Virus record (IMG/VR): IMGVR_UViG_3300011337_000487
Span: 1-39,270 of that record
Origin: a virus
Taxonomy: Duplodnaviria > Caudoviricetes
DNA length: 39,270 bases
Strand: one strand, 5' to 3'
Below, piece after piece: positions 701 through 22,687 of this stretch (the stretch's first letter is position 1; each line of letters opens with the position of its first letter). Below the pieces are notes generated by a model. That model searched no databases. It was given only the letters and a program-made list of their open reading frames with translations, and was not told the origin of the DNA. The position numbers and the translations under genes are program-made.

Positions 701-1396
701 TTATTGGTTTTGGAACCACATGCGATACGCGGCTTGCTCGACTTCACTAAGGCCCGCCATATTGCCGTCTTTATCCACGACCACGTTTTTATGCGTGGCT
801 GATGGGGCAAACGTTGACTTGGCTTCGCCCAGTTCTTTGAGGCGGGTATCAAGTGCCTCGAGTGCATCAACCATAGCGGCGGCAAATGATTCTTGTGACT
901 CAGTATACGCTTTCATGGTTGACGCCAAATCGTCATCATCGGATTTGGTGCGCTTACCGTACCCCATCCCCATGCCCTTCATCTCGGTTGACAGGCGCTT
1001 GGCCACGGCGTCGGCAATTTTGCCGATTTCGTAGTCAGTCAACAACGATTCCTCGCCGTCGCCCTCTTCCTCATCTTCCATAACCATCTCTTCGGCGTCC
1101 ATCTCTTCGCCGTCCATCTCGGCTGGGCGCTTGTCGCCCGGGGCCTTTTCGGTGGCTTTTTCGTCCATGGCTTTGTCGGCCTTTGCGGTCATTTGCTCAT
1201 CCTCCAATGATTCCATAATTGCGTCGGTAAAGTCGTCAATATCGTCAAGCGTAATAGGGTCTAACGCTTTATACGACGTTCCCTGACGCTGTGCGGATTT
1301 CTCACGCGACAGCATGTTTTTGATGAGCGCATCGGCGTTTTGTTTGCCAACGAGCGCGTCAAGTTCGCGCCGCTTTTCCTCTTTTAACATCATCAC
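701..1396 (-). CDS. Putative capsid scaffolding protein
   Basis: 231 aa, acidic, low complexity and coiled-coil-like. It lies between the protease and capsid genes, overlaps the protease by ATGA, and has many x-K-[A/S] sites. Confidence 0.65.
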   Translation of the reverse strand: MMMLKEEKRRELDALVGKQNADALIKNMLSREKSAQRQGTSYKALDPITLDDIDDFTDAIMESLEDEQMTAKADKAMDEKATEKAPGDKRPAEMDGEEMDAEEMVMEDEEEGDGEESLLTDYEIGKIADAVAKRLSTEMKGMGMGYGKRTKSDDDDLASTMKAYTESQESFAAAMVDALEALDTRLKELGEAKSTFAPSATHKNVVVDKDGNMAGLSEVEQAAYRMWFQNQ

Positions 1397-1833
1397 TCCT
1401 TCGCAATGCTAAATGCGGTCATAGGATTGGCCGCTCGACCGGCGGGCACAATCGATCGCTCGAATATTTTCACCCGATGAAATACCTTGTCTTTATCGGG
1501 TTCGGTTGGGGCATGGTGGAAGCCAATCGACATCTGGTAGTCGCGTGACTTGGTGGCGGTGATGACACTATCCGCAACCGACGCATCAAGTAATCCGCTC
1601 TCGACCAGGTACTTGCCATCAGTGCTTACCGCCTGATAGTCAGTGGTGCCAAGCTCTAGCCCGGGCTCATGCCAAAATCGCAACGGGCCAAAATTACCAC
1701 GGCGTGCCGTGCTTTCGACGGCGTCACGTAGTGCTTTTGTTGACACAATTTCGCCGTCACGGTCACGATATGCCGTGCTACTAATTGCCATCCAGCGATA
1801 CCCTTTGGTGGTTTTGTATACCGTAAACGCCAT
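1393..1833 (-). CDS. Prohead maturation protease (HK97-like)
   Basis: Motifs DRDGEIVS, LRFWH (candidate catalytic His), MSIGF (candidate catalytic Ser) and ERSIVP...AANP. Located upstream of the scaffold and capsid genes. Confidence 0.8.
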   Translation of the reverse strand: MAFTVYKTTKGYRWMAISSTAYRDRDGEIVSTKALRDAVESTARRGNFGPLRFWHEPGLELGTTDYQAVSTDGKYLVESGLLDASVADSVITATKSRDYQMSIGFHHAPTEPDKDKVFHRVKIFERSIVPAGRAANPMTAFSIAKE

Positions 1834-1908: not shown

Positions 1909-4344
1909 CTACTCATCCGCCTTGATTTGGTTAGCAATCTTATTCGCCCACGATTTGCCCGCATCACCACCCCATAGCAGATGCGCAATATACCCGTTCG
2001 ATGGGTTGCTGGGGTTGCTCCAATCGGGCCGCTTATCGACAGCGTGACGGGCAAAGAATGACACCATACGCATAATCGTGTCACGTGATACGCTTTTGCC
2101 GTTGCTTAAGTCACGCGCCCGGGCAATTCCTACTGATGTACCACCCCGCCCAAATTCCGAACGCAACGCCAACCCGCGCGTGGCTTGCGCTTGCACGCCA
2201 GCCGGTGGGGTGTACCCGTCATTAGATTTTTTGGTTACCCATTCGCCCCCACGCTTTTTGTACCAACTTGCCGCCCACGCGTTGGCGTACTGTGACGGGT
2301 ATACATCAAACTTGCGTTTCGCTTGGGCGATTGCTTGTGACCATAATAATTTGTTAGTGGGCTCACTGGCTTTTGTGGTTTGTTCAGTACTTGCACCCGA
2401 TTGCCCAATCAATACCGTACGCTTACGCGCCGCAATGGCCCGCGCTCGGGGTGATGCGGTTTCGTCATTGATAATCTCATCGTATGCACTGATTTGGGCA
2501 TCCATCTTGGCTTGGCGTTGCTTGCGCTTGGCGGCGTCACGGGCGAGTAACTCTTTGGCTTTATCCTCGTTACCAGCTCCAGCGGCGGCGGCAATTTTGC
2601 GCCCAAGTACTGACGGGTACGCCATGCCGTCAATATTTTCCATCAACCCTTGTTCAATCAGGCGGGCAAATTGCGGATCGCTTGCGTCCTGTGGTTTGTC
2701 GCTGGCGAGGTAATCCCAGTCACTCGCATCGAACCCCAACGCATCCATAACCCCGGCGCCCGTGTCGGCTTGTTGGCGTTTCTTTTGCGCATCTGATACC
2801 GCCGCCCGTTTAGCACCACGTTTGCCCTTGTCGCCCCCTGCCGATGCAATGCCACGGTTGATTGCGGCGCGTATAACTGCTCCTTCACCACCCACCCGGG
2901 CAAACTTGCCGCTGGTATCGCGTCCGAGATTGCCGGCGATGACTTCACCCGCCCGGGCGCCGTACTTGCGTGGGGTACCGTTTACGCTGTCATCGGCTTT
3001 GGTGGCGGTCAGCTGTTTGATATCCGCATCAAGTTTTTCTCGTAGTGTTTGCTCGCGTTCATAATCTTGTTTTGCAAGTAACAGTGAATTATCGCTCGCT
3101 ATTCCCTTGCCGTGACTAAGTTTAATTTTTGCCAATCGTGCTCGTGCATCTAATTCTCGTTGGCGCGCCCTATCCCGTTGACGTGTTAAGTCGCTTGCTG
3201 TGCCTGTAGTACGAGTAATTGATGGCGGCGTGGTCGGCGTGGTCGGCGTGGTCGGCGTGGTCGGAGCCTCAGGCTGTTTCCCAGCGCGGCGCTCAAATTC
3301 ATCTAACTTGGATTGCCGTTTTTGTAGTAAATCTTTTGATTCGGCAATTTCCGCTTTAGAAAGCTTGCGCCCAACATTAGAACGTCCGGTAGTAACCCTG
3401 TCTTGCACTTCCTGCACACGTTGTTGCAACTGCTGATGCTCAGGACTACCAAGCGATACCGATTGCGCAGTATCAATCTCGCGTATCTTCGCAAGTCCTT
3501 TATCATACTCGGCTTCTAGCGTGCTATTACGGGCACGTAGGGTTGCCCGTTCGGCGCGAAGTTGCTCATAGCGTGGATCATCAGAACTATACGGCGAATC
3601 TGGTGTGGTGTACTTTGCCATCTCCTGTTGGATTTGCTCGAGTCGTGCGCTGTTTGCACGTCGTTCAATGACGCTATCCGCCATCGTTTGTTGTAACTCA
3701 CTTTGACGTGTGCGTGACGTGGTCGGTGTTTCGGTACGGGGTGGCGGTGCGGCACTCTCAACCGCCGCCATTTGGTTAGCCGTGTGTTGATCGCGCGTCC
3801 ACTTTTCCCCCGCCGCATCTCGTGCCCGTTGCGCAGCAGTGAGTGATTCCATGGTGGCGTTTTTGTCATTGATTGCGGCTTGGTATGCGTCCTGTGCGGC
3901 GGCGTATTCCGCCTTTGATTTATCCAAAAATGCCTGCCACTTGGTGGTGGGCGTTTCGGTACGGGGTGGCGCTACTCGTTTGGGCTTAGGGTTAGCGATG
4001 CGCTCCGCCCGCTTTTCGGCACGTATCGTTTCGCGTACTTGTTCGGCTGCTGACTTCGCTTGATTGCGGGCTTCGATGTGCGATGCCCCACCCGCACGAG
4101 CGGCACTGTATGCACCACGGAACGCCGACCCCGCCCGCCCTGGCTTGCCGTGTGCGCTTTGGTCGTGTTTGCCCGGCATATGCTTAAGCCGTGCCGTCAG
4201 CGTCTTGAGTGTGGGCGGTTCGGATTTGCTATTGTCGAGCGGGTCGGCCTCCATGAGCGGGTTAAGAAATAGCGCATATGCCAAGCTATCGCGCGGTACA
4301 TCGTCGTATGACTTACGGGCTGGTAATGGTGGCAACATTGTCAT
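1909..4344 (-). CDS. 811-aa modular head-associated protein (putative packaged cargo polyprotein)
   Basis: Chain of modules: KHMPGKHDQSAHG motif, helical segments with PT-rich linkers, RDTSGKF motif, a PTNKLLW...YPSQYANAW...KKRGG module, and a C-terminal RGGTSVGIARARDL...RMVSFFARH...LLWGGDAG module recognisable from phage head regions. ATGA-coupled to the upstream gene. Confidence 0.75.
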   Translation of the reverse strand: MTMLPPLPARKSYDDVPRDSLAYALFLNPLMEADPLDNSKSEPPTLKTLTARLKHMPGKHDQSAHGKPGRAGSAFRGAYSAARAGGASHIEARNQAKSAAEQVRETIRAEKRAERIANPKPKRVAPPRTETPTTKWQAFLDKSKAEYAAAQDAYQAAINDKNATMESLTAAQRARDAAGEKWTRDQHTANQMAAVESAAPPPRTETPTTSRTRQSELQQTMADSVIERRANSARLEQIQQEMAKYTTPDSPYSSDDPRYEQLRAERATLRARNSTLEAEYDKGLAKIREIDTAQSVSLGSPEHQQLQQRVQEVQDRVTTGRSNVGRKLSKAEIAESKDLLQKRQSKLDEFERRAGKQPEAPTTPTTPTTPTTPPSITRTTGTASDLTRQRDRARQRELDARARLAKIKLSHGKGIASDNSLLLAKQDYEREQTLREKLDADIKQLTATKADDSVNGTPRKYGARAGEVIAGNLGRDTSGKFARVGGEGAVIRAAINRGIASAGGDKGKRGAKRAAVSDAQKKRQQADTGAGVMDALGFDASDWDYLASDKPQDASDPQFARLIEQGLMENIDGMAYPSVLGRKIAAAAGAGNEDKAKELLARDAAKRKQRQAKMDAQISAYDEIINDETASPRARAIAARKRTVLIGQSGASTEQTTKASEPTNKLLWSQAIAQAKRKFDVYPSQYANAWAASWYKKRGGEWVTKKSNDGYTPPAGVQAQATRGLALRSEFGRGGTSVGIARARDLSNGKSVSRDTIMRMVSFFARHAVDKRPDWSNPSNPSNGYIAHLLWGGDAGKSWANKIANQIKADE
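3227..3262. repeat. 9-bp tandem repeat x4 (encodes a PTT linker)
   Basis: (GGCGTGGTC)x4, perfect copies. Confidence 0.95.
3728..3971. repeat. 19-bp direct repeats flanking a duplicated domain
   Basis: GTTTCGGTACGGGGTGGCG at 3728-3746 and 3953-3971, 225 bp apart (in frame). Both lie within PPRTETPTT. Confidence 0.9.
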
Positions 4345-6182
4345 ATCCTTTGCAATCGTGCTACGAGGTTGGCGTATGATTTGGTGGTGTCGGTTTTTGG
4401 CTTTGTACCCCGTGACCGCTTAGGTACGGCGTCCCCAAGTTGTAACTTTGGCTTTGGCTCCGACGGCGCCGTGGTGTTGCTCTCATCGGGCTTTTTGGGC
4501 TTGGCTTCCTCGGTACGCTTGCCCCGGTCAACGCTTGCCCGGGTGGCGCTGGTGTATATCTCGGTGAGTGATAGCGGGCCACCAAAGAAACCACCCTGTC
4601 CTTCGGCGGGTTGCGCGTCCACCATCTTGGCAATGTCTTGGATAAAGTCACGCACTCGTGCCGGTCGGCTGGCAATGCTGTCAATGTGGCGCAATAATTC
4701 TACCTGCCCATCGGTGAGGTTATGCTTTTGCCCCTCGTTGAACATGTTGGATTGTTCGAGGTATACCTGTACCTTATCCTTTGCCGGTACCCCAGACAGC
4801 CCCGGGTTGCCCCGAATGCGGGCGAGTGTGTCGATAGCTGTGGCGATGTCGTTACTGGGGTCTAGCGCCGGGTTACTGGCGCGTGACGTCGATACAGTGG
4901 CGCTTAACTGTGGCAATGCACCACTAAGCCCCGCCTGTACCGATGCAAGGTCGGGGTCGAGGCTATCCAGCAACGAACGGGCCATACGGTCGCCGCTGTC
5001 GCTTTGGAACGTCGCCGTATATACCGCCGCCTTGGCTCGGTACAACCCCACCGGGTTTAGTTCGCCGTCGGCGGTCAGCAGGCTGGCGCGCTCGTTGTCG
5101 GGTACCACTTTGAGAAATGCGTTAATAAACTCTTTGTTCGCCGATGACCGTAGCGCCGCGTCAAGTGTCTGCCCTTCCTCGGACTTTAACTTTGCAATGG
5201 TGCTTTGGGGCATGGCCTCGGCATCGACCCGGGCTTGCTCAATCGGTGACATACGCAGCGTACCCGATGAATTAGCCTCGCGGGCAAACGCCACGGGATC
5301 AACGCCGGCTTCCAGTTGGCGCACCACCACCGGGTTTTTCATCTTGGCGACTTCGGCAGGGTCGATGCCCAATTCTTTGGCAACCCGCAACACCTCGGCA
5401 CGGTACTCGGATTGTTTGCCCGGGTATGCGCTCCCGTCTTCCTGCCGTTGTAGCGCTAACGTTCGCCCGTTACCTGACAGCACCATACCCCGGGCGTCAA
5501 TGATTGGTGACCCGGCGTCAATACGCTTGAAGTCTTCGGTCATCACCTCGGGGTTGAGCCCCCGGGCAATCTTGTCTATTTGCGCTTGGCTACTTGCCCG
5601 CCGTCGGTCGCGGGGTTGTAACTCTGCGTCGTACTGTGGATTGACCCCGCCGCCGCGGGTGTTCGATGGGATGAGGTCATCCATTTCGACGATACGGTGA
5701 GTCATGCGGTACGAGGTATTTGGGTCAACACCGTACGCCTTGGTGGGCGTGCCGGTTAGCCCTAACCCGCCGTCTTGTTGTGCCAGTGGCTTGGCTGGGG
5801 TCGTGGTGGTGGCTTGGGGTTGTGGGCTCAATCGGTTGGCCCGTTCGCGTAATTGCGCCGCGCGGTTGACGTTGCGCTGTTGTTGCTCGGCTTGCCGTAC
5901 CTCACCCGATGCACGCTTGCCGGCGTCTAGTGCCTCGCGGTGACTTGCCCCACCCGACCGGGCGGCGGTGTATGCGGCGCGTGATGCCGACCCCGCCGGC
6001 CCCTTGCGTCCGTGGTCGGCTTGGTTGTGCTTGCCGGGGAGGTGTTTGGTGGTGGTGCGCTTGCGCTTGGCAAGTAGCGCAAACCGACGCTTGCCACCGG
6101 GCGTCATCTTTGCCCAGCGGTGTGCAAACTCTTGGTCGGTGGCAAATGCCCAACGCCACTGTGCTTGACTCTGAAATGGCAT
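4341..6182 (-). CDS. 613-aa modular protein with a DdrB-like ParB-superfamily domain
   Basis: LQPRDR...IDKIARGLNP...DAGSPII...VLSGNGRT...NPVVVR...FAREAN resembles the ddrB-like ParB domain of phage/plasmid polyvalent proteins. It also has an N-terminal MPFQSQAQWRWAFA module and a KHLPGKHNQADHG motif. Confidence 0.75.
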   Translation of the reverse strand: MPFQSQAQWRWAFATDQEFAHRWAKMTPGGKRRFALLAKRKRTTTKHLPGKHNQADHGRKGPAGSASRAAYTAARSGGASHREALDAGKRASGEVRQAEQQQRNVNRAAQLRERANRLSPQPQATTTTPAKPLAQQDGGLGLTGTPTKAYGVDPNTSYRMTHRIVEMDDLIPSNTRGGGVNPQYDAELQPRDRRRASSQAQIDKIARGLNPEVMTEDFKRIDAGSPIIDARGMVLSGNGRTLALQRQEDGSAYPGKQSEYRAEVLRVAKELGIDPAEVAKMKNPVVVRQLEAGVDPVAFAREANSSGTLRMSPIEQARVDAEAMPQSTIAKLKSEEGQTLDAALRSSANKEFINAFLKVVPDNERASLLTADGELNPVGLYRAKAAVYTATFQSDSGDRMARSLLDSLDPDLASVQAGLSGALPQLSATVSTSRASNPALDPSNDIATAIDTLARIRGNPGLSGVPAKDKVQVYLEQSNMFNEGQKHNLTDGQVELLRHIDSIASRPARVRDFIQDIAKMVDAQPAEGQGGFFGGPLSLTEIYTSATRASVDRGKRTEEAKPKKPDESNTTAPSEPKPKLQLGDAVPKRSRGTKPKTDTTKSYANLVARLQRI

Positions 6183-14934: not shown

Positions 14935-14972
14935 TGCGGCCCCGCGCTAATCACATCTTATGATGAGTATAC

Positions 14973-15014
14973 CAAACACCCCCAACACATTCTAGACGGT
15001 GTTGGGGGTGTTTG
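14973..15014 (-). terminator. 16-bp perfect hairpin ahead of the late/lysis genes
   Basis: CAAACACCCCCAACAC-N10-GTGTTGGGGGTGTTTG. The U tract is weak, so terminator function is uncertain. Confidence 0.55.
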
Positions 15015-15074
15015 ATAGTTATTAGGATAGTTCCCGTGTTTTGGTACCAGACGCATCGCCAACAACACGCGATG

Positions 15075-19548: not shown

Positions 19549-20124
19549 CTACTTGCTAGTAATCATGGCGTCAATTTTTCGTTCCCAGCCTGCCCGGTTT
19601 ACCCAGCGCCCTTGCCGGTCGAACCAGCCCCGACCGGAGGCGATGGCCTCACACGTTTCGGCGTGGGTCAGCACTTGGCCGTCGGCGCCCCAGGCAACCC
19701 CGAAGGCCTCGTTTTCGTTAATAGTGGCGATGACTTCCGCGGCGGTTGGGGTGGTGGCTTTTGCGGCCTCTGCGGCTTCGACCCGTGCCCAGGCATCGCG
19801 GACGATTTGGCGCCCCATGGGGCCGGTCAGCTCATCGGCGTCGTACTCGGCTTGAACGGTCTCGGCGTACTCGCGAAGCTCGGCGGTGGTCATGGTGGCG
19901 AAGTCTTGGGTGGCGGGCTCAACCGCCGCCATCTGGTTGGCGGTGTGCTGGTCGGTAGCCCATTGAGCGCCGGCGGCGTTGTAGGCATCTTGGGCGGTGG
20001 TGAGTGATTCCATGGTAGCGTCGGCATCGTTCAGGGCAGTCTGGTAGACGTCGCAAGCCGTGGCATACTTGGCTTTGGCGGTGTCGAGGAAGGCCTGCCA
20101 TTGGGTGGTTGTCTGCTGACTCAT
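19549..20124 (-). CDS. First gene of the early operon; N-terminal domain paralogous to a segment of the 811-aa head protein
   Basis: 191 aa, Ala/Thr-rich, strongly C/G-ending codons, directly downstream of a near-consensus promoter. Confidence 0.8.
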   Translation of the reverse strand: MSQQTTTQWQAFLDTAKAKYATACDVYQTALNDADATMESLTTAQDAYNAAGAQWATDQHTANQMAAVEPATQDFATMTTAELREYAETVQAEYDADELTGPMGRQIVRDAWARVEAAEAAKATTPTAAEVIATINENEAFGVAWGADGQVLTHAETCEAIASGRGWFDRQGRWVNRAGWERKIDAMITSK

Positions 20125-20172: not shown

Positions 20173-20202
20173 ATATTAGCATAATATATTATTTGTTGTC
20201 AA
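20173..20202 (-). promoter_or_regulatory. Sigma70-type early promoter
   Basis: TTGACA-N18-TAATAT with a TG extension. The spacer holds the palindrome ATAATATATTAT (20181-20192). Confidence 0.7.
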
Positions 20203-21294: not shown

Positions 21295-21323
21295 ATGCTA
21301 TTATATTATTGTATTGTTGTCAA
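21295..21323 (-). promoter_or_regulatory. Sigma70-type promoter at the divergence point
   Basis: TTGACA-N17-TAGCAT on the minus strand. It overlaps a plus-strand TGcTATTAT that could drive the replication operon. Confidence 0.6.
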
Positions 21324-21945: not shown

Positions 21946-22687
21946 AATGTTTCATATGATGCGCCATATGTCGGCGTCGGCATGGATGTGTTACACACTG
22001 ATATGCCGGCGTACCATCGGCTGGCATAAGTGTGCCGACGTGATTAGCAACTCGCAATTTTGTACTGATACGGGGCTATCGAAGCCCACGGTAATTCGGG
22101 CGCTTGCCGAGCTGTCGGCACTTGGCATGGTGGAAGTGGTGCCCACCAAAGTGCACGGCCAACCCGCCAATCAGTACACAATTGTAGGGATAACTATTGA
22201 CACTTTCGGTAGTATCATTTTTTTACCCCCTAGTATCAAAACGTTACCCCCTAGTAAAGAATCTTTACTCCCTAGTAAAAAAACGTTACTAGGAGGTAGT
22301 AAAGAATCTTTACCCACAAAAGAAAGAATACAAAAGAAACAAACTAAAGAAAGGAAGGGAACGCGTATTGCGATACGCGACCCCGCGTTGGATAGTTGGC
22401 AAGTGTTAACGTATCAGCAAATTGCCAAACGTCATATACCGGTAACGTGGCGACAAAAAGTAATCGACACGGTAACCGATGAAGCGCGCTGGAAATCGCT
22501 ACTGGTACAATGGATTGGCTCGGGTTGGAACATCGGCAACATATCAGGAATATTGCAACGATACGAAGGAGCGTCAAATGAGCGACGAACACCACGACAA
22601 AATGATGGCGGGGGCAAACCTCCAACCTCTAACGGCCTTACTGTCCGGGAATATCTTGAAGCCGAAGGGTACACCGGACTTCAATGA
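21923..22687 (+). CDS. Replication initiator (lambda O-like)
   Basis: TQIPN, RRTIGW...ISNSQF...TGLSKPTVIRALAEL winged helix, internal iterons, and a DnaC-like gene directly downstream. Confidence 0.85.
   Translation: MHTQIPNEMFHMMRHMSASAWMCYTLICRRTIGWHKCADVISNSQFCTDTGLSKPTVIRALAELSALGMVEVVPTKVHGQPANQYTIVGITIDTFGSIIFLPPSIKTLPPSKESLLPSKKTLLGGSKESLPTKERIQKKQTKERKGTRIAIRDPALDSWQVLTYQQIAKRHIPVTWRQKVIDTVTDEARWKSLLVQWIGSGWNIGNISGILQRYEGASNERRTPRQNDGGGKPPTSNGLTVREYLEAEGYTGLQ
22210..22313. repeat. Iterons / putative replication origin
   Basis: Five TAGTA-N8-TTAC units at 22210, 22231, 22252, 22273 and 22297 (period 21, 21, 21, 24), followed by an A-rich tract. Confidence 0.8.

Follow-up and report, generated by a model that had tools for sequence, protein, structure and literature searches.

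The genome of the phage studied here raises the question of why one 66-residue module is encoded both inside a large gene lying among the head genes and at the start of a small protein with the hallmarks of an early gene product, and whether the same effector is thereby delivered twice. The whole stretch of DNA that was analysed (39,270 nt, hereafter the window) is the phage record itself and has a 127-nt terminal overlap. Its minus strand carries, in this order, the terminase and portal genes, two small genes, a gene for a 613-aa ddrB-ParB protein, an 811-aa ORF and a gene for a 146-aa protein, followed by a likely scaffold and the capsid gene. The features at the centre of the question are the following.

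1909..4344, minus strand: 811-aa predicted capsid-cargo polyprotein with fixed platforms and variable cassettes (gene context, homologue architectures).
3751..3948, minus strand: cassette M1, aa 133-198 of the 811-aa protein, paralogue of the N-terminal module of the early protein.
19549..20124, minus strand: 191-aa acidic protein with three predicted modules, putative first early gene, directly behind a sigma70-type promoter.
19912..20109, minus strand: early copy of the hairpin, aa 6-71 of the 191-aa ORF, presumed donor (alignment, tree, codon usage).
20173..20202, minus strand: promoter-like site TTGACA-18-TAATAT (TTGACA conserved in position among relatives).

Relatives of the capsid protein with 38-39% identity were found in one Anaerolineales and one Herpetosiphonaceae MAG contig (2 loci from 39 pattern matches), the Herpetosiphonaceae contig having the same gene order as the window. 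Because these distant capsid matches lie in such contigs, the host is probably a Chloroflexota bacterium. Elsewhere in the window, 21-bp iteron-like repeats at 22210-22328 lie within an O-type replication gene and probably mark the origin, and a 24-bp near-perfect hairpin (88%) is found at 14970-15017, in the intergenic region ahead of the lysis genes.

The duplication proposed in the original prediction was confirmed. The head copy aligns without gaps to the early copy with 46 of 66 residues identical (129 of 198 nucleotides; BLASTP E 9e-27), residues 53-64 of the module agree at 12 of 12 positions between the window's two copies, and 31 of the 48 positions assigned by hand to the non-core are kept. 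In 1,000 composition-preserving shuffles the best window reached 13.4 +/- 1.1 identities, with a maximum of 19. The many synonymous differences that had been noted are also present, identity at codon positions 1, 2 and 3 being 48, 57 and 24 of 66. By NG86, pS was 0.835, which is beyond correction, and pN was 0.201; the bootstrap 97.5% bound on dN/dS between the two copies was 0.146, not near 1. This combination of turned-over synonymous sites and low pN points to an old head copy that purifying selection has maintained. The early copies differ among themselves at pS 0.19-0.40, and the head copy differs from every early copy at 0.72-0.84. Where both copies use a degenerate codon for the same residue, 24 of 41 codons differ, with 23.5 expected if the codons had been wholly redrawn from late-gene usage. 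Since the early gene has 70% C at fourfold sites, versus 41% in late genes, this redrawing suggests that the early codon bias wore off during a long stay in the head gene, with 70% of the residues retained. The shift in codon bias inflates dS, which for this reason provides no clock or date, but the ratio still shows selection. Recent gene conversion between the copies was considered and rejected: of the two patches of identical DNA, the longer one recurs unchanged in a further early copy, from which the shorter one deviates by a single base.

In a midpoint-rooted tree of 57 distinct domain rows, the four head rows group on one side of a branch (support 64/85, not starred) that sits inside one subgroup of the far more varied early family (53 early rows). 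The simplest reading is a single capture from early to head, a direction that the tree makes probable. An all-ORF self-search of the window gave no second head-to-non-head duplication. The duplication region is covered by contigs from four runs, possibly the source runs, for which no base differences are listed; one of these contigs spans all of it.

The carrier protein and its neighbours are composed of the following elements (a slash marks the predicted cut).

3976..4185, minus strand: platform A, tag plus basic helix (79-97% in close homologues).
4147..4185, minus strand: K/HMPGKHDQxxHG tag, aa 54-66, predicted protease site and cargo tag (Lys context, diverse domains in tagged ORFs).
2383..3003, minus strand: platform B, opening with TK/ADD and a GRDxxGKF motif (homologue architectures, motif contexts).
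1921..2367, minus strand: DUF5872-like piece and C-terminal domain D (homologue search).
4341..6182, minus strand: 613-aa neighbour with K/H tag and ddrB-ParB domain (PF18763, E 2e-28).
1393..1833, minus strand: predicted HK97-type (Peptidase_S78) prohead protease, 146 aa (ESM Atlas feature score 0.95-0.96).

The 811-aa protein matches phrog_2859 at its C-terminus and has no Pfam match, neither to the MuF domain PF04233 nor to a recognised toxin domain. Its gene sits between the portal and protease genes; the predicted 146-aa protease gave no match in Pfam or NCBIfam, and its nearest clusters in the ESM Atlas include HK97-type prohead proteases. Platform A also opens the 613-aa neighbour (52% to window positions 5856-6047), and domain D is fused in other phages to portal, MuF, protease or capsid proteins. 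The gene neighbourhood and these fusions to head proteins bear out the head-cargo context that had been proposed. Judged from this context, it is highly probable that the 811-aa protein is packaged in the virus head, and its ejection with the DNA is somewhat favoured. Cargo platforms were also seen in one chain with the prohead protease in P0014, P0015 and P0017, and again in P0020. A scan of genomes for the portal gave no match.

The tag that opens platform A is widespread. A pattern scan for K/H[LMF]PGxH[DN]QxxH found it in 26 viral loci (L021-L046), on many contigs unrelated to one another, with up to five copies per ORF, and the window has a second copy at 6009-6047 (minus strand) in the 613-aa neighbour. 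A Lys stands directly before the tag in all 30 protein contexts, some of which share descent, and in all 17 locus contexts where the search pattern could not force Lys. Pfam matches above cut-off were obtained for 12 of 28 tagged ORFs scanned, and the domains in tagged ORFs include ART, GNAT, zeta-toxin-like, Topo IB, HNH, M90 peptidase, 2H and MuF. The K/H tag is thus a candidate for a general cargo or ejection signal. In P0010 (aa 70-463) and in G001, a related phage of 39.9 kb (L047, 13213-17141), the tagged domain has Arg, Ser-Thr and Glu motifs that look ADP-ribosyltransferase-like by eye; Pfam gave no match for this region in P0010 and two G001 ORFs. The early family had no counterpart in five tag-bearing viral records, among them G001, and no duplication between head and early genes was seen in G001. 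For the second motif, TK/ADD...GRDxxGKF (2902-3003, minus strand), the nearest upstream Lys motif is K/AD or K/AE in 20 of 20 cases among 49 homologues.

With respect to processing, the motif [TM]K[ASH], chosen after inspecting the sequences, occurs 12 times in head proteins versus 3.6 expected (0 of 500 shuffles) and 4 times in other proteins versus 5.8 expected. The residues that follow TK in 13 head proteins are Ala (36), Ser (6), Trp (5) and His (3), the Trp appearing once per carrier of the M1 cassette. The HK97 protease's own cut site is given as K103/S104 (PMC10275583). The head copy of the module indeed has TTK where the early copy has TTQ, as originally stated. The proposal that this TTK is a cut site finds no clear support: Trp after TK departs from the apparent A/S/H consensus, and two early rows also have Lys there.

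The original prediction described M1 as bracketed by direct repeats, and the region between the platforms is built as follows.

3953..3971, minus strand: 19-bp direct repeat copy 1, PPRTET linker (relatives' contigs end or switch sequence at 3944-3961).
3728..3746, minus strand: 19-bp direct repeat copy 2, PPRTET linker (relatives' breakpoints at 3719-3744).
3004..3714, minus strand: exchangeable cassettes M2/M2b and M3 with a 9-bp (Thr-Thr-Pro) tandem repeat between them (homologue architectures, contig breaks).

The two 19-bp copies are perfect, and elsewhere in the window there is no site within 4 mismatches of them. As synonymous sites are identical in the repeats while M1 is saturated relative to its donor, the repeat would have been homogenised recently, as a handle for recombination, and would not be a scar left by the first capture. 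A search with the 811-aa protein, of which the best 120 of 209 matches were analysed, gave 12 close homologues among the matches listed. Their common layout consists of the fixed platforms A and B with a variable cassette array between them, for example:

Window: A-M1-M2-M3-B
P0001: A-M1-M4-M3-B
P0002: A-M5-M1-M6-B
P0003: A-M1-M7-M8-M4-M3-B
P0005: A-M9-M7-M1-M10-M6-M11-B
P0004: A-M9-M6-B
P0007: A-M13-M6-B
P0008: A-M14-M11-B

M1 is carried by four of the 12 (P0001, P0002, P0003 and P0005; 94-97% identity) with different neighbours each time, and is missing from the other eight (P0004, P0006-P0012), two of which are partial sequences; the cassette is thus dispensable. M7 follows M1 in P0003 and precedes it in P0005. 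Overall, roughly 15-20 cassette types are swapped and reordered among relatives between Pro/Thr linkers, and the cassette boundaries are mostly PPRxET or Thr-Thr-Pro linkers; the 20 cassette seeds other than M1 were cut by hand, and some are halves of one cassette. Back-to-back linkers without a cassette between them are present in P0002, P0004 and P0005. In relatives different cassettes fill the slot, in line with the behaviour of a repeat-bounded cassette that had been predicted for M1. Contigs from four other studies change sequence at the linker-coding repeats. In contig X14 (8,312 nt), A and M1 are separated from B by about 1,110 letters of different sequence; X15 joins 3017 to 3944; and in X19 one loose end, at 3961, continues for 30 letters that match in frame the beginning of M14 of P0008, and a second, at 3950, has different DNA upstream of M1. 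Breakpoints within cassettes were found at 3518 (three runs) and 3038-3049, so linkers are favoured but not exclusive sites of exchange; loose ends at 3219-3266, which probably include unrelated GC-rich repeats, were left out of the breakpoints. In the contigs of eight runs, no clean loss of the 225 nt between the 19-bp repeats was seen, contigs being assemblies that drop rare variants. Taken together, the paralogy and shuffling of the module are nearly certain.

It had further been suggested that the polyprotein captures early genes as cassettes. M1 is the single case in favour of this generalisation. When 49 head homologues were compared with 241 kb of DNA (the window together with relatives; 22 sequences in all, for the most part pieces of phages that are more distant), non-head matches arose through M1 alone, and no other cassette matched a non-head gene. 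A search for stand-alone versions of six P0005 cassettes gave no match, and the same search also missed its positive control.

The assignment of the 191-aa ORF as the first early gene is a fair one. TTGACA lies at the equivalent place in nine of ten related loci among the matches listed, the tenth locus being incomplete, and the early codon bias described above sets the gene apart from late genes; a promoter scan of the whole window gave 10 promoter-like sites versus 7.8 in shuffles, that is, no more than shuffles. A second promoter-like site, TTGACA-17-TAGCAT, lies at 21295-21323 (minus strand) upstream of a Dam-type methylase. A model of the whole early protein has three separately folded modules (pLDDT 83, pTM 0.42), and its net charge is -14 over 191 aa. 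The early family (P0121-P0225) is modular too, with at least six alternative modules in varied combinations around TTPTAAEV linkers; its C-terminal WGADG/WFDRQGRW domain is conserved and is the most widespread part of the family. In four early-family proteins (P0216, P0217, P0222 and P0223), M1 stands by itself or in two copies.

Family and fold searches gave no support for the anti-defence or host-takeover function that had been proposed; anti-defence is suggested by context only. The AlphaFold model of M1 is a plain two-helix hairpin (pLDDT 97; helices 3-27 and 33-65). Foldseek searches with the hairpin and with the complete early protein had no match at E <= 0.001, and VIA-align returned only generic hairpins (Z <= 8.6), a search in which the C-terminal modules of the early protein were barely tested. 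The early protein has no family in Pfam, PHROG or PADLOC and one NCBIfam match far under its cut-off; the ESM Atlas contained no usable match for its function, and a search of 50,697 phage records had no match. A profile search for the early family yielded 25 clusters, two of which are repeat noise. The module does not fit an Ocr-like DNA-mimic anti-restriction protein, which would have a strongly acidic surface: the net charge is -6 for the early copy and -1 for the head copy.

The claim that both copies are the same effector stood in part. What is kept is the most conserved patch of the family (W50, D53, Q54, T56, A57, N58 and M60), which is invariant in all five head copies. On the other side, the other two modules of the early protein are missing: its second hairpin and C-terminal WGADG/WFDRQGRW domain were found in 0 of 120 head-family proteins (best 120 of 209 matches). 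Ten changes are common to all five head copies and occur in none of 14 sister early copies, and seven of these are Lys/Arg gains (p 0.0004 against the 17.6% Lys/Arg of the other cassettes). These gains, the charge shift from -6 to -1, a change of Tyr43 to Arg and a variable His55 (kept in 32 of 35 early rows and in two of five head copies) show that the surface of the head copy has been remodelled. The head copies are 91-100% identical to one another, versus 81-100% for platforms A and B.

The reading that we tentatively favour, with less than even confidence, is that M1 is an old copy of the first domain of the early protein, which would be injected within the head cargo and would bind the same host partner in a charge-remodelled form; if the cargo is ejected, binding to the same partner would be fairly likely. 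On this reading the first domain of the early gene would have been captured into the head gene, likely once, and cassettes would since have been exchanged by recombination between the Pro/Thr linker repeats. The 811-aa protein would be packed into the prohead, where the neighbouring S78 protease would cut after Lys at K54/H and K449/A. These cuts would free a piece of about 395 residues, comprising the tag, platform A, M1, M2 and M3, and no free hairpin. The cargo piece would then be ejected with the DNA, and the host partner would be bound through the retained W50/DQxTANQM end of the hairpin.

Another reading, only slightly less probable, is that the module has been repurposed: the early job would be lost, and a soluble spacer or DNA-compatible internal capsid module would remain, selected for its fold and a new surface. 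The burst of Lys/Arg gains followed by stasis, a composition shifted toward that of the other cassettes (Lys/Arg 12-22%) and the relaxed His55 are consistent with this, as is the fact that most cassettes are charged, aromatic-poor and without a Pfam match and substitute for one another freely. However, D53, Q54, T56, A57, N58 and M60 are invariant in five of five head copies despite fully redrawn codons, and the conservation of M1 equals that of the fixed platforms or exceeds it, which speaks against a repurposed module. The strict version of the original prediction, in which the protease frees M1 at TTK as an effector equivalent to the early protein and early genes are routinely captured, is improbable. 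Lys3 is fixed in five of five head copies and missing from the 14 sister early copies, M1 occurs by itself or doubled in the four early-family proteins named above, and T4 Alt with ModA/ModB (PMC9503650) offers a precedent; but Lys3 is one of the seven Lys/Arg gains, it is followed by Trp, outside the A/S/H preference, no consensus site lies at the C-terminal side of the cassette, and no second captured early gene was found in the 241 kb. About as improbable is a docking handle, whereby the more basic head copy would pair with the acidic early copy and load leftover early protein into proheads or tune its activity on arrival. The charge shift between the copies is complementary, antiparallel hairpins commonly form four-helix bundles, and P0217 has a tandem M1 pair. 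Most relatives, however, lack the head copy, and both copies in one genome are shown for the window only; a complex prediction of the two hairpins scored 0.01, which is no evidence either way. Finally, although the module is 36% Ala plus Gln, a chance resemblance between Ala-rich helices, or a chimera created by assembly, is ruled out for practical purposes by the shuffle maximum of 19 versus 46, by the four independent head homologues that carry M1 and by contigs of other studies that hold M1 in the head gene.

The favoured reading builds on principles that are already known from polyvalent proteins, T4 Alt/Mod and T4 internal proteins. Polyvalent proteins (Iyer et al. 2017), of which the P1 DdrB/DarA operon is the prototype, are described as having ddrB-ParB as a hallmark of the packaged ones and as being assembled from solo domains, possibly by cassette recombination (PMC5512222). 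Like them, the 811-aa family has multiple domains among head genes, and polyvalent proteins in this position were predicted to be packaged, processed and injected (PMC5512222). The family combines distinct domains with an architecture that varies among orthologues, and it is encoded among head genes or fused to head proteins. Hallmark effector domains were not found by Pfam in the 811-aa protein itself; ddrB-ParB is present in the neighbour and is fused to the platform in four of 29 homologues scanned (P0030, P0036, P0043 and P0046). Unlike polyvalent proteins, the 811-aa protein has a variable part made up of small non-enzymatic cassettes, most of them charged, with linker-coding DNA repeats at their borders, the gene that donated one of them persists in the same genome behind an early-type promoter, and processing is predicted to be carried out by an S78 prohead protease after Lys and not by a built-in metallopeptidase. 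The 811-aa protein probably works like a polyvalent capsid-cargo polyprotein. In T4, Alt is packaged, and ModA and ModB are made after infection and act later (PMC9503650), so that there too a single phage uses one protein family in two ways, packed in the virion and expressed from a gene; but these are whole ADP-ribosyltransferases from separate genes, whereas the module described here is a charge-remodelled, non-enzymatic 66-aa unit inside a polyprotein. The T4 internal proteins Ip1-3 are described as small, variable, tagged and injected anti-defence inhibitors at polymorphic loci (PMC12373910). They have separate genes and an N-terminal signal, whereas the cassettes here are fused in one chain behind an internal Lys/His tag. 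MuF-fused effectors are likewise head-associated carriers with variable effector domains, as presented in PMC5512222 and PMC9503650, and the same K/H tag occurs in four MuF-containing ORFs scanned. In a literature search, with most subscription papers outside its scope, neither the tag nor a case of repeat-mediated shuffling in which an early gene was the donor came up.

A bolder view, which we consider unlikely though conceivable, is that the head polyprotein is a repeat-driven gene trap sampling the phage's own fast-evolving early genes, with cassettes delivered ready-made behind a portable Lys/His ejection tag. The array could then be read as an inventory of counter-defence modules, and the tag would be a general signal, not yet described, for loading or ejection in tailed phages.

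The locus holds a real, old and selected duplication within the shuffled cassette array of a polyvalent-like cargo protein. This is important because domain accretion into a virion cargo protein has been caught with the donor gene still in the genome, which makes the two copies directly comparable. Their comparison shows how an early protein from inside the cell is altered on its way to capsid cargo, namely by seven added basic residues and rewritten codons, and the repeat-bounded cassettes suggest a route by which such cargo proteins diversify. If M1 is packaged, a remodelled copy would enter the cell together with the DNA. The Lys/His tag would allow cargo enzymes to be predicted from sequence in many phages, and it could serve to load chosen proteins into phage heads.
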